A stretch of 64,000 nt of DNA from Corythoichthys intestinalis (GCF_030265065.1 NC_080410.1:29890661-29954660); one strand, 5' to 3'. Shown: positions 3,002 through 53,249, counted from the first letter of the stretch. Program-made: numbers and translations. Notes: generated from the letters alone by a model not told the origin.

Positions 3002-4353
3002 TAGCAACACATGGTCATTTGCAGGAGATGGACTTTTACATTGGCAACTAAACGGGAACTTTTTTTAGGGGGATGGGAATTTTTTTTTTTTTTTTTTAAA
3101 GATTTAATTAGCACATTTGTAAATAATTCATCTTGATAAATCATTTTAATCTCATACTATGGTCACCCGAAAAATATTTACATTCTTATTTATTTTAAAA
3201 ACATTTCAATCTTCTTCTAGTCCGTTTTTTTAAAGCAAAAATTTTAACATATTTTTATTTTTTTTAGTTAATTTAAAACAAATGTTCAAAGCTTTGCTAA
3301 ATTTATTCATTTAAAAAAAATTAAACAATGTTTAAAAAATTTTTCAAAGTACATAAAACATTTAATGGTTTTTAAAATCCTCCAGGTTTTTTAAAATTTC
3401 AAATACCTTTATTCAACTATTAATGTGTACACACAAAAAAAAAAAAAAAAAACGGGACAGCTCTCCCCAACTGTCCTTATAAGCTCTTTAAAGGAGCCAC
3501 TGACATAAGGCTTGTAGGCTCTAATAAGTCACATTTGTTCTCTTTTACTAAAATATGTTATTAGAAAAAAATGTATTATTGCCCTCCATTTATAAATCTA
3601 TAATATTTAGTACATGTTTTGACCTACGGAGGGCGCCATGTTTTGTGCACGCAATGCACGCTGCGGGTGATGACGCGGTTGGGCTGTACTGGGAGAATAG
3701 CTGTGCAAGCAAAGCCAGTATGACGTCTGGCATGATTTTGTCACATTGTGTTGCAGGTCATATTGTTTTGTTACAGAGCTGTGAGATGAGTTCCCGATGT
3801 AATACCTGCATACAAATCCAGCTCATCAGCAGTGTCTTTAAACCAATCCTAGGTGGCTTGCCTAGATATTCACTTGCTGTCATTTGACAGTTTGTATATT
3901 CTTTCTTGCTAGTTGCATCACCGCTTTGTTTTTTCTTTTCTTTCATTTGTCTATCTCTCACCATGGTTTTCCTTTTTTTTTTTCTTTTTAAATTGATGCC
4001 GACCTACTGTCACTGACTCTTTGTGTCTACCTTTTTGTGTGTTCAATAAACCCTTTTACGCAAATTTATGAAATATCAACAGTGCTGTCCTGCTTATCAC
4101 TTTTCCGCTCTGGTTCAAATTGGAAGGGCAGAACCGACGTGTTTATGTAGCTAAAGAGTGACACTTGTAGCTTGGCAGTGACGTCACCTCCCAGAGTGCA
4201 TTGCGTAGTCAACAACAATGGCGATCGACTAGTTAAACTAATTTTTACAAATTTGATTAAAACTAAAACAAAAATGCTCTTTAATATCAAATTATTACAA
4301 CTCATACTCAAATTTATCTTTCAAGAATTACATGTCTTTATCCATGGTAACTA

Positions 4354-4830
4354 GGGTTGTTCCGATCATGTTTTTTTGCTCCTGATCCGATCCCGATCGT
4401 TTTAGTTTGAGTATCTGCCGATCCCGATATTTCCTGATCCAATTGCTTTGTTTTTGCTCCCGATTCAATTCCAATCCTTCCCGATAATTTTTCCCTATCA
4501 TATACATTTTGGCAATGCATTAAGAAAAAAATGAATAAAACCCGGACGAATATATACATTCAACATACATAAGTACTGTATTTGTTTATTATGACAATAA
4601 ATCCTCAAGATGGCATTTACATTATTAACATTCTTTCTGTGAGAGGGATCCACGGATAGAAAGACTTGTAATTCTTAAAGGATAAATGTGACTTTGTATA
4701 TTGCGACTAAATATTGCCATCTAGTGTATTTGTTGAGCTTTCAGTAAATGATACTGCAGCCATTTAACTTCTGCCCAAATGCATGATGGGAAGTGCAACC
4801 ATGTGCGTAGGGCTACCAATTGATATATCT
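4354..4830. repeat. Dispersed repeat (TAGGGTTGTTCCGATC... family), copy A; an adjoining short hAT-like MITE lies at ~4962-5150
   Basis: About 90% identical to 63145-63589. Copy A shows the uninterrupted TA site (ccaattgatatatc) where copy B carries a Tc1 insertion. Confidence 0.6.
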
Positions 4831-5661
4831 TCTCTGCGTTGGGAAAGAACATAGGGTGTTAAGAAAATGATCAACTACTACCTTTCTTCCCCACGTTCCC
4901 ACATTATATTTAATTGCTGAGAGAAGTATTCTAAGGCTTTAGCCACTTAAAAAATGGGACCAAAGGCTGTCAAAATTCTCTCTACTCATTATACATTGCC
5001 TTTAGGCGCTATCTATAGGTAAAACGGCGTCTTTATAGATTGCACGCGACAATGCGCGAGTGGGTCTTGCAGCGCATGCGTTAATTACTTAACATGATTA
5101 ATTAAAAAAAAAATTACTGCCGTTAACGCAATAAATTTGATAGCCCTACTTTAAGCCAAAACTACTCTGGATGAGTGTAAGACATTTTGTCTGTAACGTT
5201 AAATACAATTAGAAAACAAAACAAAACAAAAATAAATAAATAAATAATTTCAAAAGGCATGTCGAATATTTTTTTGCCGATTCCGATACTTTGAAAATGA
5301 CGTGATCGGACCTGATCGATCGGGATGACATCTTTAATTGTAACCTTTATCTTTTACATTAATTAAAAAAGGAGAAAGCTGTTCTCGTTTTGTATATTTC
5401 AAATCATTCCTTTTAATTTTTTTTTTCATTTTAAGTAAAAATTAAATATTGTTATATACTTTTGTTTTATTGTAGGACTTTTGCACACAGAGGACACTAA
5501 GTGTCCAGTTTAACATCCACCATCTTTGAGAGTTTGCGTATCACGCTCTGGAACACATCAAGTGCTGGCCTTTGCCCTTCAATTCTCAAAACAAAAACTA
5601 CAAAATGCCCCAAATTTGCTCATTTAGCAACAGAGAGGTTAGAGTTGTCGTCTGGCCTTAC

Positions 5662-5776: not shown

Positions 5777-7307
5777 CTGATTCCACAAAAAAAAAAAAAG
5801 ATAATTAGGAGAAGCACACACATGTGCAATCAACACAGACTTGTACGAAATCTAGATCAAGGGTCTCAAATTTGCGGCTCAAGGGTTTTTTGAGGCCAGG
5901 GGGACAATAATTTGGAGCCCACTATTTGACATCAAATGTCAAGAATTTTGTAATGAACAAATTAGAAGTCCTTCCTTTAAATATACTTTAAAAAAAGGCG
6001 TGGCCCACACAAATTTTGCCCTAGGAATTCATTTACAGCACGGGTGTCCAAACCTGTCCTCAAGGGACGCTGTGGGTCCTGGTTTTTGTTCCTACCAATC
6101 GAGCACAGACAGTTTAACCAATGAAGTTTGTGCTAAAACAAGCAGCACCTGACTGCAATCAACTGATTACACTTATGAGACACCAGATTGGAGAAAAGAT
6201 GTCGTCTTGTTTTGTAGGAATGAAATCCAGCACCCACTGCGGCCCTATGTGGAATAGCTTGGACACCACTGATTTACAGTGATCCCTCGTTTTTCGCGGT
6301 TAATGGGGACCAGAACCCGCCGCCGTAAGTGGGAAAACTACGAAGTAGCGCACCCCACCCAAAAATAAAATTGTTCATTCTGTTCATGTATTTATTCAGA
6401 TCGATCATTGAATAGAGATACCTACCTAAAAGACATTTTTTTTACCCTGACCCCCAAGTATAATTTTAAAAAACATGTGGAAAACACAGACGAGGGGGGA
6501 AAATGCACCCTTCTTCAAAATAAACTGCTGTATTTTAAGCCAAAAGAACATGCTGCCATGGCAGTTTCATGATGCATGAAGCCCCCAAACTATTTTTAAT
6601 TTGTCTGTTTTACCCTGGAGACCCCCGTTTATAGACACCGCGCAAACGCTTTTGTTTCAACCCAGCCATAAAAAGTAAGTAATTATATTATTCAAAAGCT
6701 ATCATTTTTATCTTAGAATCATTAAATTGTGTCAAATTCATGTATATAAAAAAAAAAACCCTTAATAAAATTATTCACTTTCATATTCTAAACTTTTTAA
6801 AAAATTACGTCACAATGAAAAAAATACTGTGTTAATTTGTCACGGATATATACCTCATAGCTATCACTTAATTGTATTTTTTTGTTACTGTCGCATTTCC
6901 CCCGATATTTTAAATAATCGGTCCGATCAAAGAAAAATTGGAAAGAAAAAAACAAAGTTTAAAAAGGCGAAACATTTGAAAAAGAAAATCTCGACCACTC
7001 CTTGTTGTCTGCGATTTCTGCATTGCGACCCTTGTTATATTACCGTGTTTCACCCATAAAATTCCCAAAAGGTCCGGCTGTGGCCATTTACAGCTGTGTC
7101 TTTGACACTCAGTGATACATGCTACACAAAGTATTTAGATCGAAATAAGGTATGTATGCGATAATATCTAGTTAAAATCATGGTGTCTTAATTATGCTCT
7201 CTCACACTCTTATTTCAAGCTAGGGTTTAAAACATTTTTTTTTTAAAATGCCCTCCGGTTCAAAATTTTTCTTCCCCCAGAAAATTGAGATTTTAGCTTT
7301 CCAATTA

Positions 7308-7835
7308 GGGCTGCAGCTATCGATTATTTTAGTCGTCGAATAATCGAGTAATCGGTTAAGGAACATGAACAATTAAAATACCTGAGCCGAGCCTCAAACA
7401 GTATAAAAAATAAGGATCTATGTTTAACAAAAAATAATTGAATAACTTACATAGCAAAAGTCTGCGAGCTTAAATGCTATAAAACACAAACTTTTTTTTT
7501 TTTTTAAACAATGCTCTTAACAAATGGTTCAGGCACATATTCCCACCAAAAAATGGCTAAATATACTCAAACTAAATTCTGAATACATTAAAAAAAGCTA
7601 ACTCAAAATAAAACTTCGCTTAGGTTGGTCAACATGGAGCAGCTGGATTCACCCATGTGAAATGAGGCAGACTAGAGGGCAGAGTATCCACTTAAATCAA
7701 TAAAACTGAATGCAAACACTTTCAAAATAAACCATTACAACACCACAATAATCAAACGAATACTCCAATCAGCAAAATTCAAATCTTTTTTTTCCTAATC
7801 AAATACTCGAGTTAATCGATTAATCGTTGCAGCAC
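7308..7835 (+). mobile_element. MITE copy of the same family (GGGCTGCAGC...ATCGATTAATCG)
   Basis: Imperfect TIRs and an internal match to 136-680. Confidence 0.7.
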
Positions 7836-8300
7836 TATTTCCAATGATGTATCACACATGCATATCAGACAATTTTGAAATTTGGCCAAATTGGGGGTCT
7901 CAGAGCGGAACAGTTTTTCGCCATATATATATATTTTAATAAATGTTTTATAAGCACTTTAAATGTAATAATTATGATAAATTTTAAACTTGTTATTGTC
8001 CCACAGAATTGTTTTTAAACAACACAAAAAAACTAGACACCCAATCCATTAAAAAAAAAAAAAAAATGCTTGTGCTTATTAAATGCTTCATTGAGTGTCC
8101 ACTCAAATCCGCACCAGCTGCTCACTTACACACAATGAGTTGCCACAGCAACTGTTTAACAAAAATGATGATTGACGCATAAGGCGCTTTGAAGGTAGAG
8201 TCTCTGGCAAACAAACAGCAAGGAGAGGGTGGGAGGGAGCGAGTGTGAGAGTGCGATTGGCTAGAGGCAGCTCATCTGTATTTTTTTAAATTGGAAAAAC

Positions 8301-9570
8301 TAGGGCTGTCAAAATTATCGCGTAAACGGGCGTTAATTTTTTAAATTAATCACGTTAAAATATTTGACGCAATTAACTAGAGCTGGGAATCTTTGGGCAC
8401 CTAACGATTCGATTACGATTCAGAGGCTCCGATTCGATTATAAAACGATTATTGATGCACCCGCCCTCCTTTTTTATTTATTTATTTATTTTTTAATTTT
8501 TAATTTCTTTTTTTTAAATGTTTTGTACATTAGTTCCAAAATTGTTCAAAAATACTCTCAGGCTAAACCAAACTACTATTTTAGTATCAAGTTAACATAT
8601 AGCAGTAAACAAATATACAAAAATAACTGCAAAAAAAAAAACTCCAGTCCCCATTCTGTATCAGCAGCTTTAAACTACATTCAATTAATTTAATGTTGTG
8701 AATCAACCGTTGTTAAAATTGCTCCCGTTATTCCATAGAAAGTTTTAAAACTATTTTAAAGATAGATTCAAGTCAATATTTTACCGATTTAGGAGTATTT
8801 TTGATAAAAAGTTAATTAGGTTTGCTTGGAAGGTTCGCTACAACAGCCTTGCAGGGAAGTGTACAGCTTTAAGATGGCGGCCGTTTACTAACGCCCGCAT
8901 CTAGCTTTTTGTAGGTGTGCTGCTAACGCTACCGAAGCTATATTGCAACTAGTCCTATATAAATGATATCTACCGTAACATTATGTGGATGTACTTTGTA
9001 GCAGCTTTTTGGCAGCAGTCACGTATGTTGTTGCGTTTTTTTTATCTCGTGGCATGAGTTGAGCATTGGCATTACCCGAGGGGCCGGGTAATGAGAAGCA
9101 TGATGTTTAGCTACTCTCGCTCCGTTCCTCATTGACCGCGCGGCGCGCTGAGTGTGTTGTACTTCCGCTTTACTTGGCATATTTCAATAATCGGAATTTG
9201 GATGTTTGTGAATCGTTCTCGAATCTTCCACGGCTGAATCGCGAATAATCTAAGAATCGGAAATTTTGCACACCTCTAATAACTTGTAACTAACATTTAT
9301 CTTTTATGAACTACAAGTCTTACTATCCGTGGATCACTTAAACAGAAAGAATGTTAATAATGCCATTTGTGGATTTATTGTTATAACAAATACAGCACTT
9401 ATGTACAGTATGTTGTATGTATATATCCGTCTTGTGTCTTATCTTTCCATTCCAACAATAATTTACAGAAAAATATGGCAATTTTAGAGATGGTTTGAAT
9501 TGCGATTAATTACGATTAATTTTTAAGCTTAATTAACTCGATTAAAAATTTTAATCGTTTGACAGCCCTA
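8301..9570. mobile_element. Non-autonomous hAT-like element (TIR TAGGGCTGTCAAA...TTTGACAGCCCTA) flanked by 8-bp TSD GGAAAAAC/GAAAAAAC
   Basis: Terminal inverted repeats and a near-perfect 8-bp TSD. A paralogous empty site is visible at ~19500. Confidence 0.7.
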
Positions 9571-10095
9571 GAAAAAACAAATCCACGATGGTCTAAGGGC
9601 GCGAAGTTTGAAGCGCGAAGTAGCAAGCGATCACTGTATTTTGATTTTTTTTTTTTTTTTTTTAACAACATGTTAGCCAGAGCCAAAGGGTATTTTGCAA
9701 CATGAGTTCCTTTTTTGGGGCGAATACTTGATGCAGGCCCAGACAATTTCCAGCAGAGATAAAATGAGTTTGAGACCCCTGCGCTAGATCAATAGAAAAT
9801 TGTTTGTTCTCATCACATGAAACTTTCCTATTTCTGTTATGTCATGTAATCAATTTAATCTACTCATGAGTCTGACTTAAATGCTTTGGAGTGTTTTTTT
9901 TTGGTTAAATTAGGTTTGTGAGGTCCCGCAAAACCAGCAAGCTGTTTGACGTTTGGCATGTTGCCTGCAGCTTTCTGGGTGAAAAAGACCCCCAATTTCT
10001 CTGTGATGTCATCAAAGCTTCCTGCTGGACTTCAGACAGGAAGCGGAACGGACATCAGCGTGCGTGTGATAGAAAAGAGTAGAAGAGTCTTACGG

Positions 10096-10473
<378 letters not shown>

Positions 10474-10477
10474 TCAC

Positions 10478-10585
10478 CCCGAGGTTCTCCAGGAGGAGCT
10501 GCATGATCTCGTCGCAGTACGGAAGGATGTTGGACGAAAGCGCTCGGCACAGGTCGCTCACCAGACCCACGGTGGCGAGACATAC
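10478..10585 (-). CDS. kpnb1: kpnb1 exon 17 ([36 protein letters not shown])
   Basis: Acceptor tcttgcag, donor GGG|gtgagtgac. Confidence 0.9.
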
Positions 10586-10800
10586 CTGCAAGATGGACAA
10601 GCCGCTTTAAATTGAGTCGTCTCAATGAGAACTCTTGTAAATAGGAGTGGGAACCTCTTGGTACCTCACGATACGCGATACAAAGTTCACGATAATGAGA
10701 TATGGCGATACAACGATTATCTAAATATTGGTCAGGAAATCATTCTAGGATATTCTACAAACAACTTCTGCTGTGAATTGTAATGAGTTTATCACTTGTA

Positions 10801-10896
10801 GACATCCAATCCATTTGAAGTGGGAGGGATGGCAGCGAATGAACATTCGTTCATTCGCTGCCATCCCTCCCACTTCAAATGGATTGGACGTCTATG
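10801..10896. repeat. 96-bp near-perfect palindrome (GACATCCAATCCATTTGAAGTGGGAGGGATGGCAGCGAATGAAC|GTTCATTCGCTGCCATCCCTCCCACTTCAAATGGATTGGACGTC)
   Basis: Self-complementary about its centre. Shares the GGATTGGACGTCTA motif with copies at ~16800, 29640, 30320, 37770, 52740 and 53010. Confidence 0.8.
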
Positions 10897-12039
10897 GCCG
10901 GTAGTGGCAGCCAATGCCAGGCAATGAGGTAATTTTGGGCCATTTAAGGTCATTTTCCTGTTGATTTTGGGGTATTTCATGGGTCACTTCATGTTTGAGT
11001 TACAGAACAGGAAGTGACCAGGGAATCACCTGAATCAATGGGCAGTGACTCAAACTCAACAGGAGATGACCTGTAAATGCCCCAAAATGAACAGCAAGTG
11101 AGCTAAAAATCGGACAGAATAACTGTAAATGCTCTGATTTCGAATGAACAAACGTTCACAGTCTAAATGATTGGGCGTCGAGCACCATCAGTGCAGCCTT
11201 ATAGTTAACAGACACTATTATGGTGGAAGATTTTGGTAGCAACTTATTGGTTCCCTTTTTTTTTAAAACAGACACCTTTTTAAAACGATATTTCGATTCT
11301 TGGCAGGAGCATTTCGATAACCTTTTGGGATACAAAGTATCACGATATATCACCATTTCGACATTTTGTTACACCCCTACTTGGAACAAACCAATTGTTA
11401 AAAATTTAATAAAAAATAAGTGGGACCCGTGTGCATTTTGCTCAGGCAATTTTGTTTTAGAAAGCTTGTGACCTCACATAAGCCCCTTTCATACTTATAT
11501 CCCGGTAAATTCCCGTGTAAGGTGACACGGGATTTAGCCGTGTCATGGTTTTCATACATGGGGAAATGTCCCGGGAACAAACCGGGTTGTGTGAAAGTGG
11601 CTTGATTTATCCCATGGTGCGGGGAGGGCGGCTGGCGCAATTTTAGAACCCGGACATCATTTTTGGTCAGCATTTGCAGTCACATTCTCTTGGTCAAATC
11701 ATGTTTTGTTAGAGTGTAGGGGCATTCCCAACGTCGTACTTGCAGCCAATTCAAGCTCAAACTCATTTGCTCCCAAAAACGTATAAATACGTTCTATTTT
11801 TGATTGTTTCAGTGTCCCAGAGACGTATTTATACGTCTTTTACGGGGTTTTTTTTCCACAAGAGACATCTCTGGGTTCTGATTCAATTTAGTTCCAAAGC
11901 ACAAAGCTGAAAATCCATTTTAAAGCAATTAAACAGGCCACTGGAGGGCAGTAGCGCATTTGGTAAGACCCCCAACTTGACTCAATGGCAATGAACGGCC
12001 GGGCCGCACAGCCGGGGCGCTGGCGGAAGACGACCGAAT

Positions 12040-12160
12040 GAACGTCCAGGATGCCAGGCGGTGGACAACCGAGCAGAACAACCGGTAGGATGCCTGGGAT
12101 GCCAGGCGCTGGACGACTGAGCAGAACGACCGGGACCACCAGTGCAGCGGTCCGTGCTGC
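12040..12160. repeat. Minisatellite, ~2 units of ~57 bp (GGATGCCAGGCGGTGGACAACCGAGCAGAACAACCGG...)
   Basis: Tandem duplication with a few substitutions. Confidence 0.6.
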
Positions 12161-12586
12161 TCGCGAGCAGAGCCCGCAGAGACTCAAAAAAATTCATCTT
12201 TATGAGACAGGCGGAGATGAGGGAAAGGTTTACCCGGCTGTCGCGGCCACAGCAGCGTCATCTCTCAGTTATGTGTAAATAAATTGCTACTTTGCTATCA
12301 AAACCTCTATTTGTCTTGTTGTTATTTTGTACAAGGAAAACATTAATTCAGATGTTTGGGATGTAACTAAAGCAAAAAATAGCTGTGTTAAAGTCGAAGT
12401 TATGTTTGAAATGTATGCTTTCACAAAAAGCTCAATTTATCTTTTTTCATCAGAAATTGGAAAATTGCTCAAACTAGGCTATTTTCTAATGCTGATTTCT
12501 AAAGAATTGAAAAAGATATGAACTTTTTTTTCCTGCTCAAAGAAGAGAGTCTAATCGTTCTTTTGGCGGGTGTTTGTGTTTATATA

Positions 12587-12668
12587 CAGTGGGGAGAACA
12601 AGTATTTGATACACTGCCAATGGGTTTTCCCATTGACAGTGTATCAAATACTTGTTCTCCCCACTGTA
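12587..12668. repeat. 82-bp hairpin made of two back-to-back Tc1-like TIRs (TACAGTGGGGAGAACAAGTATTTGATACACTG)
   Basis: Near-perfect palindrome. Confidence 0.8.
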
Positions 12669-13696
12669 GCAATAGAACAGAATTTTCTGTGGGCCTTGCA
12701 AAATCTGTCAAAATCCAGTAAAACGGCTGGGAGTGAAGGGGGTTGCACCGGTGAAAAGAAAATGGCTGGGAGTGAATGAGTTAAGACCAGTAATGTCAGT
12801 AACACATTAATGTAATCTGCTTACTTTCAGTAACGACTAACGAGCAATCTAATGCGCTCATTTTTCCAAAAGATGACAAAAGATCTCAGTTCGTTGCTAA
12901 CTACACTGGCTCAAAAACACTGGGGACAGCTAAAAACTCCACCTTCAATTCAAAGAACCACTTGTAATTACAGCACAGTGCTATTTAATTGAATATATCA
13001 AAACTATGAATGAACATGTGAAATTATGTCTTTGACCAAAAAAAAAAAAAAAAGATAACAGAAAACAGGTTTTACATTCAACTTTCTTCAAAGTATCTAC
13101 CCTTTGCTCTAATTACTTTTTTGCACAATTTTGACACAGTTTCAATGAGCTTCAGGAATTCTAAATATCCATCTTGCCTCCTAAGGTGTGGTCTTGGCTA
13201 AGCAATGCAGTCTCTAAGGTGCTAGTCACATGATCTGTTCGAAAAATAATTTGGACCCATTATGAAATACTTTGAAGAATTCTTGTTAATTTCTTTCATT
13301 TTTGTTAATTTGCTTTACGACTTTTATAGACACCATTTAAATGGCCAGGTCTTTATTTTAAAGGTGAATTTCAGAATTTTTGAATTTTTTAAATCCTGGG
13401 ATTTTAACAGTGTTCAGGTATATGTGAAAGGCGCTTCTGATGTCACCTCTGTGCCTATTCACACGCATAATCAAAATTAGATTTGGACGAATAAATTATT
13501 CAAAAACGTTTTTCTAACCATCAGGTTCACATAATTTTTAATGGTTCAAATATTTAGTTTATTGCTTTATAAGGCCTGAATTTTGTAAAAATCAATTTCA
13601 TGAATGCTTTTCAATGACCCGCATAAACCCAGGGCTGGATCACTCCCCGTCAATGGGTGTTTTCAATTAGAGCCCCATCTTCAAATGGCAGCCTAC

Positions 13697-42917: not shown

Positions 42918-43239
42918 CTGTCAATAATTATTCTTTATATTTATTCTATATACATGATATCTAAGGTCGCGCACTCAATACAGAATGTTACATTGAGAAC
43001 ACAAACGCCCCAAATGGAAAAGGAGATAAATGTATCGTTTTACTAGGCATGTGCCGGTATGCAATTCTGACGGTATGATAACCTTAACCAAAAATATCAC
43101 GGTTTCACGGTATTGCAATTACAGCTCTAAAATGTTTGAGATTTCTGGGTTCCAAAAAAAAAAAAAAAAAAAACTTTTTCCATTGAATAGGATTTTTATT
43201 TTTCAAAACTGTATAACATAATTAGCAAATTGGAATATA

Positions 43240-44869
43240 CAGTGCCTTGCAAAAGTATTCGGCCCCCTTGAACCTTGCAACCTTTCGCCACATTTCAGGC
43301 TTCAAACATAAAGATATCAAATTTTAATTTTTTGTCAAGAATCAACAACAAGTGGGACACAATCGTGAAGTGGAACAACATTTATTGGATAATTTAAACT
43401 TTTTTAACAAATAAAAAACTGAAAAGTGGGGCGTGCAATATTATTCGGCCCCCTTGCGTTAATACTTTGTAGCGCCACCTTTTGCTCCAATTACAGCTGC
43501 AAGTCGCTTAGGGTATGTTTCTATCAGTTTTGCACATCGAGAGACTGACATTCTGGCCCATTCTTCCTTGCAAAACAGCTCGAGCTCAGTGAGGTTGGAT
43601 GGAGAGTGTTTGTGAACAGCAGTCTTCAGCTCTTTCCACAGATTCTCGATTGGATTCAGGTCTGGACTTTGACTTGGCCATTCTAACACCTGGATACGTT
43701 TATTTTTCAACCATTCCATTGTAGATTTGGCTTTATGTTTTGGATCATTGTCCTGTTGGAAGATAAATCTCCGTCCCAGTCTCAGGTCTTGTGCAGATAC
43801 CAACAGGTTTTCTTCCAGAATGTTCCTGTATTTGGCTGCATCCATCTTCCCGTCAATTTTAACCATCTTCCCTGTCCCTGCTGAAGAAAAGCAGGCCCAA
43901 ACCATGATGCTGCCACCACCATGTTTGACAGTGGGGATGGTGTGTTCAGGGTGATGAGCTGTGTTGCTTTTACGCCAAACATATCGTTTTGCATTGTGGC
44001 CAAAAAGTTCAATTTTGGTTTCATCTGACCAGAGCACCTTCTTCCACATGTTTGGTGTGTCTCCCAGGTGGCTTGTGGCAAACTTTAAACGAGACTTTTT
44101 ATGGATATCTTTGAGAAATGGCTTTCTTCTTGCCACTCTTCCATAAAGGCCAGATTTGTGCAGTGTATGACTGATTGTTGTCCTATGGACAGACTCTCCC
44201 ACCTCAGCTGTAGATCTCTGCAGTTCATCCAGAGTGATCATGGGCCTCTTGGCTGCATCTCTGATCAGTTTTCTCCTTGTTTGAGAAGAAAGTTTGGAAG
44301 GACGGCCGGGTCTTGGTAGATTTGCAGTGGTCTGATGCTCCTTCCATTTCAATATGATGGCTTGCACAGTTCTCCTTGAGATGTTTAAAGCTTGGGAAAA
44401 CTTTTTCTATCCAAATCCGGCTTTAAACTTCTCCACAACAGTATCTCGGACCTGCCTGGTGTGTTCCTTGGTTTTCATAATGCTCTCTGCACTTTAAACA
44501 GAACCCTGAGACTATCACAGAGCAGGTGCATTTATACGGAGACTTGATTACACACAGATGAATTCTTTTTATCATCATCGGTCATTTAGGACAACATTGG
44601 ATCATTCAGAGATCCTCACTGAACTTCTGGAGTGAGTTTGCTGCACTGAAAGTAAAGGGGCCGAATAATATTGCACGCCCCACTTTTCAGTTTTTTATTT
44701 GTTAAAAAAGTTTAAATTATCCAATAAATGTTGTTCCACTTCACGATTGTGTCCCACTTGTTGTTGATTCTTGACAAAAAAATTAAATTTCATATCTTTA
44801 TGTTTGAAGCCTGAAATGTGGCGAAAGGTTGCAAGATTCAAGGGGGCCGAATACTTTTGCAAGGCACTG
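43240..44869 (-). mobile_element. Tc1-like DNA transposon (1630 bp, TA TSD, ~200-bp TIRs CAGTGCCTTGCAAAAGTATTCGGCCCCC...)
   Basis: Inverted ends at 43240-43450 and 44650-44869. Internal 302-aa transposase ORF at 43459-44367 carries D,D,E motifs (DNDPKH, SPDLNPIEN). Confidence 0.9.
43459..44367 (-). pseudogene. Tc1 transposase ORF, nearly intact. The N-terminal HTH segment (MKTKEHTRQVRDTVVEKFKAGFG*KK...) lies upstream but is separated by a single in-frame TAG.
   Basis: The six-frame ORF begins MQAIILKW.... Reverse-strand translation upstream recovers the conserved Tc1 N-terminus with one stop. Confidence 0.65.
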
Positions 44870-46510
44870 TACGCATAAAGGTAAATAAATAAAAAATAAT
44901 AAAAATAAATGAAATATTCTAAATAAAATAAAATTGCCATGATAATTAGCCCCTTTATTAAATAAATAAAAAAATAACAAAAAATAAATGAAATATTCTA
45001 AATAGAACTAAATTGGCATGCTAATTAGCCCCTTTATATACCTCGTTAACAAGCTTACGTTTCAGTATGTTTTACCAATGCTAGACACACTACAGATGCT
45101 GGAGTAAATGCTCGTAGCTAGTAGGAAACGTTCATGACAGCGTTACTAATTTTGTATAAATGCGAAATCATATTGGGAGATATTGCCTTCTCTGTTAGCC
45201 ACCCCGTGCAAACATGTTTTACATGTTGGTTGGCCCACCTAAGCCGCGGCCTTAAAGAGAATTATAATACTAAGGGGCTGTGTGATATCAATGGAACAGT
45301 TATGTGGCAAGATAATAAAGTTAAAAAAAAAATAAATCACACTCATGACCAATTATCGAAAATAAATAGAAAATTACGAACATTTACGAATGTAGCCCGG
45401 AAACAGCCAAATGGGGCTATGACGTCACAGCCAGGAAGCAAAAGGTCGAGGCAGATGCCATTGTTGTTTATCGACGAGAGAGTTGCGTTCGTTTTTTATC
45501 AAAAAAATCGCTAAAATGGTTCCAACCTGTCGTGCTATGTGGTGTACAAATAGCAATTTGTCGCAATGTAGAACCCATGAGTTCCCGAATGCGAGAAAAA
45601 GAGCTGGACTAAGCAGACAAAAGGTAAAGTTCGTCCGTGCTAAGAGGGCCAATTTTGCAGACCCAGCCTCCGGCACGGTTTTGTGTGGTGTAAATTTTAC
45701 ACCTGAAAGCTTTTCGAACTATGGACAAATTAAATCAGGTTTTGCTAAGAAATTGCTGCTGAAAGCAGATGCGGTGCCCACCATACACGCGCAGCCACCT
45801 AAATGTTCTGAGATATCAAGAAAGAGGACGATGACTGGCACTGATGATACCACCCCAGGCAAAGCAAATGAGTTGAGCAGCCAAGCTCGAAATGGCCAGA
45901 GTGAGTACTCTTTTATAATAAAAAACATATCATGCATTGGCTATAGGACTGGACACATGTATAAATTATCGCTCGTAAAATATATACAACAAATCCTTTA
46001 ATCCCATTCATATTTGTGTCTGTTGGCAGAGCGAAAACCTATGATAGCACAATAAATGATAATTATTCTATATATTACTTTATTTTGCGGTCACGGTGTA
46101 TCAGCTTCACAAAAAGAAATGCAAAACAAACCATTCGGTGTTTCCCACACGATCTGTTGCCGGTGTTTCATCAGTGTGATTGCTCCCCTCAATGATCCTT
46201 TCATTAGGCTGCATTGGCTTTCGTTTGGGCTCAAATTGATAACCCAAAACACCAAAGAAAGGTTCATAACTTTCCTTGTCACTATTAGAAGAACGTTCAT
46301 TACGTCGGATTCGTCGCTGCAAATAGAAACAAAATTGTCCGCCATCATCGCTGCCATTCAGTACTTTGTCAGGACCCAAGCACTGAGCGGGTGTTTCCTA
46401 GTTGTGACGTCACGCACACAATATGCTAGATTTCGGGGATCTCGGGCACCGGTCGTTTTAGCTTGACAATCGATCCAAATTTCTACCATTTTCTTGGTGT
46501 GTGTAATTAC

Positions 46511-48305
46511 TAGCAGTGCAACGGTTTGCGGTTCAAAACCGAACCGTACGGTTCGCCCTGTACGGTTCAATACGCCTTTATGAACCGCGCCTTTTTGGTT
46601 TTACAATTACAGTAATCTATTCTGAACGCTTGTGAAATGAATTGGTCAAACTCTGTGTGCCTGTGTGTGACGTGAAGCGCAGCTGTGGAGAAATTCCCGC
46701 CCCGCGAGTAAATGTCCAATCGCTGTCAAGCACCTGTGTAATAGGAGCCGAGTAACGACCTCTCTCGCTTACGAGCGAGGTGAAAGTGAAACAAGAAAGA
46801 AAACAAAAAAAGTTATGGCGAGCGGAGGAGTCGACAGACCGATTTCTGAGGAGGCACCGGCTTCTTTCAAATCTGCGGTGTGGCAACATTTCAGTTTCCC
46901 CGTGGACTACAATGCAGACGGAGAGAAAACATTGAAAGAAAAAAAACAATTTGCAAGCATTGCTTAGCGCTTGTTCCCTATGCTAACGGCAACACTTCTA
47001 ACATGACTTGGGCACCTCAGCCGGCATCACCCACAGACATCGCTTTCTCAGAGCAGGACAACCCCGAAGATGACACCAGTGAAAACACACGGGTCTATAG
47101 AAGAGGCGTTCGAAAAGCCTTACAATATCAGGTCAGAAAAACACAAGAAAATAACCCACGCAGTGGGAATGTGCATTGCAAAAGACATGCAACCATATTC
47201 CGTGGTTGAAGATGCGGGCTTAGTTAATTTGATTGTAACGCTTGACCCGCGTTATATTGTTCCCTCGCGGATATATTTCGCCAACAACATAATCCCCGAC
47301 ATTTATGAAATGTCACGCAAAGCCATCGAAGGTGATTTCGCGAAAGCACATAGTTTCGCCCTGACCGCTGATAGTTGGACGTCCCGTGCTAGAGAGTGCT
47401 ACTACCTAACTGTGACGATCCACTATAATTCATACCTGTCAAGTTGTAAGGTCTCGGCGTTATTTGTACAAGTGAGCACTGATTTTTAAATGTGTACGCC
47501 GCAGGTTACGTTCAAAATCTGCACGTTTTTCGTGCATTGGCGTTTTTGTTGGGTTTTTTTTCATCCGTTTGGATTTGGTCACGCGTTTGGTTTGTAGCAA
47601 ACGCGATGCTAGGCGGCTCCAATATTTCCTGACTGTGGCCGACATCATACAATCTACGCCTAGATATCTCATGCATATAGAACTACATGCGAAATGACAC
47701 ACGGTAGCGTTAGTAAACAGCCGCCATTTTAGAGCAGTAAACTTCTCAGAAAGGCTCTGTTGTAGTGAACCTTCCGAGCGAACCTAAGCAACTTTTTATC
47801 TAAAATACTCCTAAATCGACAAAATCTTGACTTGAGTCTATCTTTAAAGGATGAAACAGTTTTGAAATTTTCACATTCGAAAGTAGACAGAAGGGAACTA
47901 AGGCAAAAACGGGAGCAATTTTATCAACTTTAACCGTTGATTCACAACATTAAATGACCTCCAAACATAGCAAAGGTTACTATGTTTTTGGGTTTGTTTG
48001 TTTTTTTTTAATGAAAAAAAAAAGAAAGGTATCACCAGTTACTTTGCCAAGTAACTTTTTTACTACTGTGTATTTCAGTAGTCAGTCACTACACTTGCCA
48101 AAGAGCTAAGAGGCATTTTAACAGTCGAAAATGTTTACATTTTAAGTGTTTATTTCATTTTTTTTAAAAGCAAAATAAAGGCAGTTTAAAAAAAAAAAAA
48201 GAAGAAAAGCAAAACGCAAAACGCAAACCGAACCCGAACCGAAACCGTGATCCCAAAACCGAGGTTCAAACCGAACCGTGGGCTAACTGAACCGTTGCAC
48301 CCCTA
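46511..48305. mobile_element. hAT element (TIR TAGCAGTGCAACGG...CCGTTGCACCCCTA) with 8-bp TSD GTAATTAC, nested in THAP-element copy 1
   Basis: TSD at 46503-46510 and 48306-48313. Copy 2 retains the unoccupied site gtgtGTAATTACacg at 52521-52532. Confidence 0.8.
46800..47490 (+). pseudogene. Decayed BED-zinc-finger / hAT transposase N-terminal region (SAVWQHF...CKHC...; ...DAGLVNLIVTLDPRYIVPSR...TADSWTSRA)
   Basis: BED-finger and hAT motifs split across two frames (ORFs 46880-47209 and 47070-47489) with a stop between them. Confidence 0.6.
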
Positions 48306-50300
48306 GTAATTACACAAAGTGGCATGATATGAATCCAAAAGGCATGCGTTTATGGATAAATGATGGAATATTAGCATTTCCCCAGGTGTTGTCATACCCT
48401 TTAACTTTCCTGTACCCAAAGTATTCCCATACCAGTGACTTCGTTTTCTTCGATGGGGGTAAAAGTTCAGGGGTTTCATGTCCTCCAGCCAACGTGCAGC
48501 ACAGCTGTCTCACTGACACTGAGCAACAACTTGAGGGGGGAGCCCTACATTTTTGGGACATAAAATACAGTCATACGTAGGGACGGTATGACTGAAAGTT
48601 TTAGCGGTTTTGAAACCTTGACGTTTTCATACCACGGTAGACCTTGAAACAAGTAACCGACACATGCCTACGTTTTACACCCTGAATCGACACAAAAACA
48701 GACCACAGGAGTGGAATCAGCCTAAAAGTAACACTTTCAAAAATTACTAAAACATGACTAAGGATAAAAAGTATTTAACTAAATCTCAACGGCCTGCCAA
48801 AAACAACACCAAATGTAACAGGACTTATTTTCTTTATTTAACATGAAAAATATACGCATCGTGAGCAGCTGCAGAGGCGGATGTCCTTTTTTTAACCAAC
48901 TCTAAAAAAATCCTCAACAAAAAGAGTTACTGAATATGACAGTGTTTGAAATTATATTTACTGCTGTTTTGTTTTGCTCTCCTATGGTATGCCTCCTTAT
49001 GAAGTCAAAAAAGTAATTAAATTTGAATTTATTGGAACTTCTTATTAGCAGTCGGTCGGCAGAGGAAATGAGAGTCGATGCGCTTTTCTATTTTTGAGTT
49101 GATCTCCTCTCTAAGAAATGCTGAATAAAATACAATGATGCCACTCATTCTTCATTTACTAGTCAGCAGCCACCCCAACACACACACTTAAAGCACCTTC
49201 CCCCCCGCTCTTGCAGATATTCCAAAACGACTACTTCACCGTTGACTTAACTCGAGTCAAAATTCCAAAACAGCTATTAGAGAGCACTCCATGATCAAAA
49301 CAGCTCCAATATAATGTGATTAGACATGTGCCGACTACCGGTTTCAAAGTATACCGTGGTATTAAAAAACGTCGCGGTTTCAAAAGAGCAAAAATTTTCC
49401 ATCATACTGCCCCTACAGGATTAGCTATTTTTTTATGTCCCAAAAATGCAGGGAGAAATCCCTCGCTTGCAGCTGCAAAGCTCAAACCTCCCCCACCTGT
49501 TGTTGCTCAGTGTCAATAAATCAGCTGTGCTACACGATGGCTGGAGGAGGTGAAACTCCTGAACTTTTTCTCCCCATCGAAGAAATCGTTTGGTTTGGTA
49601 AATACTTCGGCTACAGAAAAATTACAGACGGCCGCGGCTTGGAGGAGGAGGGCAAACCGACATGTACAACATGTTTGTGGAGGTTGGCTGCTGAGGAAGC
49701 AATCCATCCAATATTTACACAAAATTTACACAAAATGAAAGGCAAGTAAACATTATCATGAACGTTTCCCACCACCTACAAGAGTTAACTCCAGTGTGTT
49801 TAGTGTGTCTAGCGGTGGCAAAATGCGTTTCTCTCTGGCAACTGTGTTGAGAAAGAGTGTGTGTATCATGAAACATGATACGAGTCATACACATGTGCTT
49901 TTTATGGACAATAACTCAATTATTTTTGTTCTGATGTTAATAATGTGAGCCGTGGCTGTGGGTTTACACTCACTTAAAGCACTACATTTATTGTAATTTT
50001 ATTTAGAATATTTCAGTTATTTTTTACATTTATTTTAACATTATACTTATATTCCAAATTGCTAATATCGTTTGAAAAATAAAAATCCTGTTCAATGGAA
50101 ATAAGTTTTTTTAACCCAGATATCTCAAAGTAACACATTTTAGAGCTACCATAAGAGCTTGCGATACCGTGATACTGTGAAAGTTTTGCTTAAGGTTCAC
50201 ATACCGTCAGAATCTCACACCGGCACATGCCTAAATGTAATGATTATGGATTGAATGGATTTCTACACCGCTTTTATCTCTAAAATTCAGCAGGACTCAC

Positions 50301-50387
50301 CTTGCTGGTTTTTCCTTCCTTGTGACACTTGGGACACTCCCAGCAGTTGGGAATCTCGTCGTTGATGATGCCCTCCGCTTTGCCCAT
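50301..50387 (-). CDS. kdm2b: kdm2b-like exon ([29 protein letters not shown])
   Basis: Acceptor tctcgtag, donor AAG|gtgagtcc. Matches KDM2B ...[18 protein letters not shown]. Confidence 0.85.
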
Positions 50388-50468
50388 CTACGAGACAGCA
50401 CAAAAAAAATAGTACATGAAAACTATATGTACTTGACAGCTAGCCACCATGAAGGTAGAGGTCCCCAC

Positions 50469-50612
50469 CTTGAGGCAGCGCGGGTGTATGATTTCGTTGC
50501 AGATGGTGCACTCCATCAGGCTCAGGCTGAACTTGTCCTCCTCGCCTTCCACAGTGTCCTCCTTTCCCGCCTCGCCGCACGCCAGGCACACCGCCGTGTG
50601 CGGCAGCACCGG
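50469..50612 (-). CDS. kdm2b: kdm2b-like PHD-finger exon ([48 protein letters not shown])
   Basis: Acceptor tgtgcag, donor AAG|gtgggg. Matches the KDM2B PHD region. Confidence 0.9.
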
Positions 50613-51078
50613 CTGCACACAGATGTCACAAGTCACAACACGACCCATGCCTAATTAGCTACAGCATACCACCATTTACAGTGTTCCACTGTTTTGATAC
50701 CCCCACGTCCATGTTTTTAAAACAAAATTTAATGGAAAAAAATAACACATTTGGACAGTCCTTTTCCTCTTTGGCCCAGAAGACACGAAAAAAAAATTCA
50801 AACATGGACTCATCAGACCACATTGCGCCCGCACTACATCAGCACAAGACATGGCATCCTCTCCATTGGCCTGAGATTATTTTTGTATGTTTTCATATCA
50901 GTTCTCAGCCTTAATTCATCAATTAATCGATCAGTTGCCCAAGATCCATGCACAGTGCATGTCTGTTTCTGGTTAACTGGTAATGCCAGTTGCCATGGAA
51001 ACACAGCATCGTTGCCTGCTGGCCTACAGCTTGCCTTGGATGCTATTTGAAGAATCCGTGTGTGGCTTTTGGTCTTAC

Positions 51079-51255
51079 CGCTGTGCACTGCCTGAGCAGG
51101 CAGGACTGCTTCATGCGCCCGGGCCCTCCGAACTTCTTCATATCCTTGCAGAAGTGACACTCGCCGCACTCGCTACGGGTGCACGCCTGGCAGCGGCGGC
51201 ACCGCGTCCTCCTGCGCCTCGCCCCCCCGCCCAGCGCCTTACTGCCCGACATCCC
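51079..51255 (-). CDS. kdm2b: kdm2b-like CxxC zinc-finger exon ([59 protein letters not shown]); in-frame ATG at 51250-51252
   Basis: Near-identity with the KDM2B CxxC domain. Acceptor cgttag, donor GCG|gtaagacc. Confidence 0.85.
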
Positions 51256-51297
51256 CTAACGAGTCAGCTGCAAAAACAACAAGAACAACAACATTAA

Positions 51298-52619
51298 AGG
51301 GTATTATAATACTAAGGGGCTGTGAGAGATCAATAGAACAGTTATGTGGCAAGATAACAAATATTAACAAAGTTAACAAAAAAATAAATAACGTTCATCA
51401 GCAATTATCAAAAATAGATTGAAAATTACGAACATTTCCAAAAGTATTCCGGAAACAGCCGAATGGGGGGGGGGGGGGGGGGGGGGACGTCACAACAAGG
51501 AAACAAAAGGTCGAGGCAGGTGCCATCGTTGTTTATCGACGAGAGAGTTGCGTTCGTGTTTTATCAAAAAATTGCTAAAATGCTTCAAACTTGTCATGCT
51601 AAGTGGCGTACAAATAGCCATTTGTCGCAATGTAGTACCCAAGAGTTCCCGAACGTGAGAAAAAGAGCTGGACTACGCAGACAATGAGTAAAGTTCGTCC
51701 ATGCTAAGAGGGCTAATTTTCCAGACCCAGCCAACAGCACGGTTTTGTGTGGTACGCATTTTATACCTGACAGCTATTCGAACTATGGACAAATGAAATC
51801 AGGTTTTGCTAAGAAATTGCTGCTGAAATCCCGAGATATCCCTGATATCCTGAGATATCAAGAAAGAGGACGATGACTGGCTCTGATGAGACCACCCCAG
51901 GCAAAGCAAAGGAGGGAAATGACCAGAGTGAGTACTTTTATAATAAAAAACATATCACGCATTGGATATAGGACTGGATACATGTATAAATTATCGCTCG
52001 TAAAATATATACAACAAATCCTCTAATCCCATTCATAAATGTGTCTGTTGGCAGAGCGAAAACCTATGATAGCACGATAAATGATAATTATTCTATACAT
52101 TACTTTATTTTGCGGTCACGGTGTATCAGCTTCACAAAAAGAAATGCAAAACAAACCTTTCGGTGTTTCCCACACGACCTCTTGCCGGTGTTTCATCAGT
52201 ATAATTGCTCCCCTCAGTGATCGTTTCATTAGGCTGCATTGGCTTTCGTTTGGGCTCAAATTGATAACTCAAAACACAAAAGAAAGGTTCATAACTCTCC
52301 TTGTCACCATTAGAAGAACGTTCGTTACGCCAGATTCGTCGCTGCAACTAGAAACAAAATTGTCCACCATCATCGCCGCCATTCAGTACTAAGCACTGAG
52401 CTGATTGTTTGCTTGCTGTGACATCACGCACACAATATGCTAGATTTCCGGGATCTCGGGCGCCGGTCGTTTTAGCTTGACAATCGATCCAAATTTCTAT
52501 CATTTTCTTGGTGTTGCGATGTGTGTAATTACACGAAGTGGCATGATATGAATCCAAAAGGCATGCGTTGATGGATAAATGATGGAATATTAGCATTTCC
52601 CCAGGTGTTGTAATACCCT
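51298..52619 (+). mobile_element. TTAA-flanked THAP-carrying element, copy 2 (1322 bp, no nested insertion), 45 bp upstream of the kdm2b CxxC exon
   Basis: Same termini and internal sequence as copy 1. TTAA at 51294-51297 and 52620-52623. THAP-like ORF 51463-51687 is degenerate. A 23-nt G-run lies at 51464-51487. Confidence 0.7.
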
Positions 52620-53249
52620 TTAAGGTGACATATTTCACCTTTCCAGTCTTAGGTTTAACTCTTTACACAGCATTGACGATGATTGACATCAAATCATGTG
52701 ACTTCATCTTATGCTTTCAATTTAAATTTGCCACTAACAGACGTCAAATCCATTTGAACTGGGAAGGGTGGCCGCGAATGCCATCAAATCGATGGATCAA
52801 CATCTTCATGATATGCCATTTTGTGAAAAAGAATGCTTTTCATTCAAATGTTGAAAATATTTCAGCGACAAAAAAACGTCAAAAACATCGATAGCGTATT
52901 TCATTGTTTAGGCAAATATAACTCTTTGTATTGAATGTGTTATAAAACTGTTTTTTCCCCCATCAATTAATTCATTGATTGCACATTGACAGTGGTAGAT
53001 GTTAGATCCATTTGGATTGAATGGACTGCCATCTCCTCCCAATCCAAATAATTGGACGTCTATCGTCGTCAGTGTCACTTAATCATTTGCTACCACTGCC
53101 TGACTCGTATTTCAAAATAATTTGACGTCAAAGGCTGTGAAATGGTTCAAATAGCCTGTCGACACCACTGTTCCATGATGGGGGTGTCCTAGAAATATTA
53201 GCATTGAACTCTTCTGCTTGATGCTTTCGACTTGCGGTCATCGGGTCAC

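Follow-up and report, generated by a model that had tools for sequence, protein, structure and literature searches.

Two repeats in the genome of the pipefish Corythoichthys intestinalis are very probably non-autonomous, internally deleted copies of a Kolobok transposon of the Kol0 type. Both lie in the window analyzed here, a 64,000-nucleotide stretch (GCF_030265065.1, NC_080410.1:29890661-29954660) from whose first letter all window positions are counted. A first description, prepared from the bare sequence without database searches and called here the sequence-only reading, had presented the repeats as a TTAA-flanked transposon carrying a THAP zinc-finger gene fragment and belonging to no standard annotated family. 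The combination of TTAA, 5'-RR...YY-3' ends and a THAP-containing transposase is, however, the very definition of Kolobok (PMC9587614, PMC6004289). This superfamily produces target-site duplications of 4 bp that are specific to TTAA and has 5'-RR/YY-3' termini, 'unlike piggyBac' (PMC9587614), and its transposases possess DDE, THAP and H2CH motifs (PMC6004289). N-terminally truncated Xenopus copies are devoid of THAP (PMC6004289), which places the THAP domain at the N-terminus of the protein. The pipefish copies represent a new, or at least here unnamed, non-autonomous member of a well-described superfamily; in the literature searched, we found no report of Kolobok in syngnathids.

Insertion sites and termini of the two copies

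A BLAST comparison of copy 2 with its flanking TTAAs (51294-52623) against the whole window recovers only copy 2 itself and copy 1, the latter as two blocks (45252-46500, 86% identity including gaps, and 48306-48404, 97% identity). All four outer boundaries of the alignments coincide precisely with a TTAA, beyond which the flanks are unrelated. TTAA is rare in the window (0.0074 per base), so the occurrence of four exact boundary TTAAs is far beyond chance. Aligned globally, copy 1 with the insert removed (1342 bp) and copy 2 (1322 bp) agree in 91.0% of the 1290 columns that are free of gaps; a further 84 columns contain gaps. The two copies, their identity of ~90% and the TTAAs bracketing each of them on both sides had therefore been described correctly in the sequence-only reading. 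Its size estimate of ~1.3 kb holds for copy 2, but not for copy 1, which spans 3145 bp owing to a nested 1795-bp insert that went unmentioned. The coordinates of all features are collected in Table 1.

Table 1. Features of the two Kolobok copies and of the element nested in copy 1 (window positions)
Feature	Position	Strand	Remarks
Copy 1, non-autonomous Kolobok element (very probable)	45256-48400	+	3145 bp; 1342 bp after subtraction of the nested insert together with one copy of its target-site duplication
Copy 2, non-autonomous Kolobok element (very probable)	51298-52619	+	1322 bp
TTAA target-site duplication, copy 1 left	45252-45255		seen in the sequence; inter-copy BLAST homology ends here
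TTAA target-site duplication, copy 1 right	48401-48404		
TTAA target-site duplication, copy 2 left	51294-51297		
TTAA target-site duplication, copy 2 right	52620-52623		
Left terminal inverted repeat of copy 1, mutated	45256-45270	+	AGAGAATTATAATAC
Right terminal inverted repeat of copy 1	48386-48400	+	GTGTTGTCATACCCT
Left subterminal TGACGTCA box, CRE-like palindrome	45420-45427		165 bp from left end
Right-arm TGACGTCA box, mirror image	46405-46412		~190 bp from right end, nested insert discounted
THAP exon, remnant of Kolobok transposase exon 1, copy 1	45516-45900	+	GTGAGT donor at 45901
THAP exon remnant, copy 2	51580-51927	+	GTGAGT donor at 51928
Non-coding core, copy 1	45901-46131		putative fusion of the 5' portions of transposase intron 1 and KolX intron 1
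Probable KolX first-coding-exon remnant, copy 1	46132-46357	-	...YQFEP...RVGNTEW; donor TG/GTTTGT at 46131 splits Trp codon
Probable KolX exon remnant, copy 2	52157-52389	-	Trp codon mutated to AGG; donor at 52156
Nested hAT-like element in copy 1	46511-48305	+	1795 bp; 8-bp target-site duplication GTAATTAC at 46503-46510 and 48306-48313

Each copy was inserted independently of the other, and the two sites are unrelated. In inverted orientation, the sequence at ~49321-49823 resembles both flanks of copy 1, and the left flank, TTAA and right flank, when joined, are colinear with this paralog. At the copy 1 junction the paralog is uninterrupted, reading '...AAGCCGCGGCC gtctg TAAT TTTTCTGTAGCC...' as opposed to '...AAGCCGCGGCC TTAA(element)TTAA CTTTCCTGTACCC...' around copy 1, which identifies copy 1 as an insertion into an older repeat. 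The search for a paralogous empty site, proposed in the sequence-only reading, thus yields an uninterrupted counterpart, albeit one that reads TAAT and differs by a 5-bp indel; diverged as it is, it supports, without strictly proving, the duplication of a single TTAA. Copies that, like these, lie ~3 kb apart in the same orientation could also arise if a 1.3-kb stretch were duplicated segmentally and locally, yet the probability of this is negligible: similarity stops at the TTAAs, copy 1 interrupts a repeat that is intact in the paralog, and both copies have inverted termini and a 4-bp duplication. The sequence-only reading had itself named shared flanks beyond the TTAA as a sign of such a duplication, and the flanks are unrelated.

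The termini of the copies are short and partly eroded. Copy 2 starts with AGGGTATTATAATAC and ends with GTGTTGTAATACCCT; its terminal inverted repeats (TIRs) match at 13 of 15 positions, and only the terminal 9 bp are perfect (AGGGTATTA/TAATACCCT). Copy 1 starts with AGAGAATTATAATAC, ends with GTGTTGTCATACCCT and matches at 9 of 15 positions. The identical starts, the end 'GTATTACAACACCCT' and the perfect inverted repeat that had been attributed to both copies are therefore not borne out. Longer TIRs were sought, and beyond the 15-bp ends the arms share only an 18-mer containing TGACGTCA. The outermost bases are 5'-AG...CT-3' (5'-AGGGTATTA...TAATACCCT-3' in copy 2), in agreement with the 5'-RR...YY-3' of Kolobok and not with CCC...GGG. 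All full-length Xenopus Kolobok copies likewise begin with AG beside TTAA (PMC6004289). The window copies are comparable in kind to the Xenopus T2-MITE (miniature inverted-repeat transposable element)/XKol group, non-autonomous Kolobok derivatives with TTAA and AGG-type ends, in which the T2 motif is TTAA/AGGRR and XKol ends read, for example, AGGGGAACT... and AGGACATG... (PMC6004289). The AGGGT at the end of copy 2 agrees with AGGRR at 4/5 positions, the fifth base being T, and copy 1 has a mutated AGAGA; we do not assign the element to the T2-MITEs. Unlike T2-MITEs, which are short, non-coding and found in frogs, the window element belongs to a teleost and keeps two exon remnants.

The TTAA duplications on both copies would also suit a non-autonomous element of the piggyBac superfamily, which shares with Kolobok the TTAA duplication and a cut-and-paste DDE mechanism, and a few piggyBac families encode KolX-like proteins too (PMC9587614). 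We nevertheless consider such an affiliation extremely unlikely. The AGGG...CCCT termini, already recognized as unlike those of piggyBac in the sequence-only reading, depart from CCC...GGG in the very respect in which Kolobok differs from piggyBac (PMC9587614). The piggyBac transposase (DDE_Tnp_1_7) is devoid of THAP, whereas the coding remnant of the window element is a THAP exon homologous to Kolobok transposase exon 1, and none of the related loci showed similarity to a piggyBac transposase.

The THAP exon and its relatives

The open reading frame (ORF) of copy 1 that starts from the ATG at 45516 matches Pfam THAP (PF05485, cut-off 23.9 bits) with its first 91 residues at 27.9 bits and contains the AVPTIH box. 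The corresponding sequence of copy 2 scores 20.8 bits, under the cut-off; it has an in-frame stop at the Trp codon, and a 22-bp deletion takes out AVPTIH. The THAP ORF with AVPTIH reported for both copies is accordingly present in copy 1 only. Copy 1 is not intact either: the nearly invariant Trp is replaced by Lys, and a zinc-ligand His by Asn (CGVN compared with CGAH/CGTH). A frameshift in the exon tail is common to both copies, such that '...AKLEMAR' is readable at 45880-45900 only in another frame, followed by GTGAGT. The lost Trp and His, the stop and the frameshift show both THAP copies to be pseudogenic.

No homologue was retrieved by word-indexed searching of proteins, whether the query was the THAP exon or the minus-strand ORF considered below. 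An exhaustive HMMER search of 1.84 billion representatives with the THAP exon produced 290 matches, the best of which (P0001, XP_057701391.1; 178 bits) is a Corythoichthys intestinalis gene model combining THAP with a C2H2 array. Another C. intestinalis model of this design (P0159, 'zinc finger protein 391-like isoform X1') came from a follow-up search. Among the other matches, P0002 (91 bits, 52% identity) lies in the European Nucleotide Archive (ENA) contig L001, where the THAP ORF (445-1098) directly precedes co-oriented exons (3113-5601) matching the transposase P0155. P0007 (66 bits, 44% identity) lies in locus L002 as exon 1 upstream of Kolobok transposase exons. A further relative occupies a 2-kb contig (L003) with the THAP ORF only. 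The host proteins THAP1 and THAP2 reach only 21 and 16 bits against the window THAP.

P0155, a 758-aa protein of C. intestinalis, comprises THAP and a full core ('GDGRCDSMGHCAKYGSY...TDRH...YDCWH...'). The core was named by a BLASTP comparison of P0155 with canonical Repbase entries given in Data S5 of Kojima & Bao 2022 (PMC9587614). The match to Kolobok-2_DR extends over the whole D-to-E core (E=1.7e-46, 38%), followed by Kolobok-1_XT (2e-34), Kolobok-1_BF (1e-33), Kolobok-1_AP (4e-23) and Kolobok-1_NV (8e-15); matches to the distant KolobokE and Kolobok-1_CGi lineages are not significant. The exons of L001 and L002 match the same Kolobok cores as P0155. The window itself contains the THAP exon only: tblastn with seven canonical cores and P0155 finds no Kolobok core anywhere in it (best E=0.11), and the copies are therefore non-autonomous.

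The 3' boundary of the exon is conserved together with its sequence. The pattern ...LE(M/V)AR/GTGAGT appears as '...AKLEMAR/GTGAGT' in the window and '...AKLAVAR/GTGAGT' in L001, and the P0001 and P0159 proteins turn to zinc-finger-gene sequence directly after '...LELAR' and '...LEMAR'. As the relatives with visible context are Kolobok exon 1 and the boundary is shared, the THAP exon is, judging from these comparisons, exon 1 of a Kolobok transposase gene and not foreign cargo. The sequence-only reading had been right to see in the THAP ORF a fragment of an intron-containing gene with a GT donor behind it, the exon boundary being conserved with Kolobok exon 1. The downstream AG acceptor that it added finds no counterpart, since nothing beyond the donor resembles a transposase exon.

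The nearest proteins, P0159 (78%) and P0001 (71-72%), could be taken to mean that a TTAA MITE-like element captured exon 1 from a THAP or THAP-zinc-finger gene of the host, and no transposase was found to exceed 52% identity in the THAP exon. Such a capture, alone among the rival readings in having some support, is very unlikely. Kolobok transposases natively possess THAP as their N-terminal domain (PMC6004289), and the next relatives with known context are all Kolobok transposase exon 1. The exon occupies the place of transposase exon 1 in L002; a matching TGACGTCA box accompanies it, and a probable KolX remnant is found at the opposite end. The reverse route, in which a transposon exon is spliced to host exons, is documented and common (bioRxiv 10.1101/2020.05.07.082677), and since the relatives are Kolobok exon 1, the direction from transposon to gene model is the likelier one. 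Where the sequence-only reading had left a choice between a non-autonomous cargo-carrying transposon and a transduplicated host exon, the non-autonomous TIR element stands, with the qualification that its THAP exon is native to the Kolobok transposase.

An N-terminal THAP DNA-binding domain is also found in the P element and THAP9. Membership in this group was rejected: the window element has a 4-bp TTAA duplication, unlike the 8-bp duplications and different ends of the P element, and its THAP relatives are joined to Kolobok and not to P-element cores. In Drosophila, the KP repressor is an internally deleted P copy that keeps only the THAP-encoding 5' part. A comparable repressor role is unlikely for the THAP ORFs of the window, as they are inactivated by a lost Trp, a lost His or a stop.

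The minus-strand ORF and the origin of the element

A second ORF, on the minus strand of both copies, had escaped the sequence-only reading together with the nested hAT-like element. The ORFs of the two copies are 86% identical at the protein level and read '...SYEPFFGVLGYQFEPKRKPMQPNERIIEGSNHTDETPATDRVGNTEW'. A Pfam search with the ORF gives no match. Pairwise comparison aligns 44 residues of it with residues 229-272 of the pipefish protein P0033 ('YMFEP...RLGNTEW') at 32% identity (E=0.002), and the matched segment of P0033 directly precedes the 'CSCGTC...' Cys cluster of P2RX7_C. Translated in six frames, the window contains the motif Y.FEP-(15-45)-GNT.W, a pattern chosen post hoc, a single time, and none of 200 shuffles contains it. 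The Kol0 lineage, with Kolobok-1_XT as its type, encodes a transposase and KolX, a protein with the P2X7 cytoplasmic-ballast fold that begins with 'W-C-x-C-x2-C' (PMC9587614). In L002, KolX is encoded on the minus strand: exon 1 ends with '...DNVNTG/GTATGC', splitting a Trp codon in phase 2 as in the window ORF, exon 2 starts with 'CLCDNCKPQPSEGECLCC...', and the joined peptide reaches 26.1 bits against the Pfam P2RX7_C cut-off of 23.5. The minus-strand ORF of the window is a probable remnant of the first KolX exon; the assignment does not go beyond probable because the diagnostic Cys-rich domain is deleted.

L002 provides the full-length plan for comparison. Its components are arranged as left TIR, TGACGTCA box, THAP exon (plus strand, 7460-7801), DDE core exons (plus strand, 10239-13295), KolX (minus strand, 16174-15980) and right TIR. 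The left end reads TTAA/AGGTAGGCCC (TTAA/AGGTAG), and the 24-nt TIR, TTAA/AGGTAGGCCCAAATGAAGCGATTT, agrees with the far end at 22/24 positions. The window element repeats the outer parts of this plan: TTAA/AGGG..., a TGACGTCA box at +165, the THAP exon with its donor, ~230 bp of putative intron remnants, the probable KolX exon with its donor on the minus strand, a mirrored TGACGTCA box and ...CCCT/TTAA. In L001, neither a right end nor KolX was found within 11 kb, and the only candidate left end is TTAA/AGTCCAAGG at 121. The long intron between the THAP and core exons of L002 holds tandem short ORFs (8112-8530 and 9320-10156) with a period of ~115-120 bp ('MLRITHLAHRKSYLVIICPNSH...'), a satellite-like array that recalls the tandem repeats reported inside Xenopus T2 elements.

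In L002, 193 bp separate the left end from the TGACGTCA box (7090-7097), and in L001 the box (338-345) stands upstream of the THAP ATG. Counted inward from the ends, a palindromic TGACGTCA resembling the cAMP response element (CRE/ATF-like) recurs at a conserved distance of ~165-215 bp in the window element and in two unrelated full-length Kolobok loci, and the boxes stand upstream of the THAP and KolX exons. The box could be a shared promoter element or a transposase-binding site. Copy 2 displays a 23-nt poly-G run (51466-51488) that adjoins and partly destroys its left TGACGTCA box, while copy 1 has GGGGCTAT at that place; the run may be a homopolymer expansion or an assembly artefact.

In their TTAA, AG...CT ends, short TIRs, THAP exon and convergent, probable KolX remnant, the copies correspond to Kol0 elements such as Kolobok-1_XT, Kolobok-2_DR and Kolobok-1_BF (Kapitonov & Jurka; Kojima & Bao 2022, PMC9587614). 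Unlike autonomous Kolobok elements, which encode a DDD/E core with C/DxxH and H2CH motifs, they have neither this core nor the Cys-rich domain of KolX. The segment between the two exon remnants (45901-46131) shows no homology to any transposase or KolX exon and is flanked by two splice donors, from which we infer that it is the junction of an internal deletion uniting two introns. The autonomous ancestor would have consisted of a TIR, a promoter, the transposase gene (THAP exon 1 and DDE core exons), the convergent KolX gene with its promoter, and the other TIR. A deletion from transposase intron 1 to KolX intron 1 would have removed everything catalytic; the ~1.3 kb left over would comprise the two ends and, from each gene, the promoter region and the first coding exon. 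Mobilization would then have occurred in trans: the transposase of a full-length relative would bind the ends, excise the element and paste it into a TTAA, duplicating the latter. The copies are by now ~9% diverged and mutationally dead, and copy 1 was struck later by the hAT-like element.

Several observations weigh against this interpretation. The closest relatives of the THAP exon, at 71-78% identity, are C2H2 zinc-finger gene models and not transposases. L001 and L002 are other families, with similarity to the window element confined to the protein level (44-52%) and none at the DNA level. The searches, which did not extend to the source genome, turned up no autonomous partner sharing the TIR. 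In L002, the right TIR reaches the last base of the locus, leaving the second TTAA unseen. The KolX assignment consists of a 44-residue alignment, a motif and an intron position, with the Cys-rich domain deleted. TTAA specificity is testable on two copies only, and the paralogous 'empty site' of copy 1, 68% identical overall, has TAAT and a 5-bp indel in place of a clean TTAA.

Surrounding sequences and THAP-zinc-finger genes

The element nested in copy 1 is bounded by TIRs TAGCAGTGCAACGGTT/TAGGGGTGCAACGGTT, and copy 2 has a single GTAATTAC at the corresponding place, which represents the empty site. Its ORFs are decayed; a stitched zf-BED domain scores 23.7 bits, above the Pfam cut-off, alongside a weak match to the Hermes DNA-binding domain.

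The older repeat hit by copy 1, ~0.9 kb in size, is an inverted duplication or a long-TIR element; a spacer of ~650 bp separates the left arm (43044-43237, 44872-45251 and 48405-48670) from the right arm (49321-50233). The left arm was struck successively by a Tc1-like element and by Kolobok copy 1. Neither insertion point is interrupted in the right arm, which is therefore the reference for the empty sites. The Tc1-like transposon (43238-44871) is TA-flanked and has 223-bp TIRs, 97% complementary, that start with TACAGTGCCTTGCAAAAGTATTCGGCCCCC. It contains a 302-aa minus-strand ORF with the motif '...FQQDNDPKH...', which we take to be Tc1-type.

Host-gene exons encoding CXXC and PHD fingers are located on the minus strand at 50280-51252. 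Among solved structures they match FBXL19 best (6ASB, E=2e-74), with KDM2B and KDM2A ranking behind it, and the gene is probably an FBXL19 orthologue. Copy 2 lies 28 bp upstream of the strong 3' splice site tgttgttgttcttgttgtttttgcag/CTGACTCGTTAGGGGATG (acceptor at 51268-51269, region 51253-51297) that precedes the FBXL19-like ATG exon, and so borders the polypyrimidine tract on its 5' side, a place in which a branch point would be expected. The probable KolX remnant of copy 2 and its donor are on the same strand as this gene. Copy 2, in this position, could affect the splicing or first-exon usage of the FBXL19-like gene.

In predicted C2H2 proteins from pipefish, salmonids and others (P0001, P0159, P0012 and P0036), exon 1 is repeatedly a THAP exon of the Kolobok type. 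One of them, P0012 from Salvelinus, keeps part of the Cys-rich N-terminal region of the transposase before the zinc fingers, and in P0033 and P0154 a Kolobok-type THAP is fused to KolX (P2RX7_C). These THAP-C2H2 and THAP-KolX proteins are either real host-transposase fusions or chimeric gene models. P element and Kolobok transposases supply 21% of tetrapod host-transposase fusions (Cosby et al., bioRxiv 10.1101/2020.05.07.082677). The P0001 and P0159 models are similar to such fusion genes in joining the THAP exon, at the position of the GTGAGT donor, to C2H2 exons. Unlike them, the window copies are fused to nothing, and the pipefish fusions are computational gene models.

It is doubtful, though conceivable, that the promoter-THAP-donor module of Kolobok deletion derivatives seeded THAP-C2H2 fusion transcription factors in pipefish. 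The derivatives would in that case act as portable 5' exon modules, in which a promoter, a complete THAP exon and the strong GTGAGT donor splice into downstream host exons. A THAP exon 71-78% identical to that of the window is the first coding exon of at least two pipefish C2H2 models, P0001 and P0159, while the window copies themselves are dead. If true, such seeding would be a teleost, donor-site-driven version of transposase capture.

For annotation, the finding means 4.5 kb to be masked as DNA/Kolobok non-autonomous with a nested hAT-like element, and a THAP ORF that should not be taken for a host gene. The element illustrates in compact form how the two genes of Kol0 are arranged, a THAP transposase with a convergent, here probable, KolX, the transposon protein that has been proposed as the source of the ballast domain of the P2X7 receptor. 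The presence of its THAP exon in zinc-finger gene models fits the known route by which transposase DNA-binding domains pass into host transcription factors.

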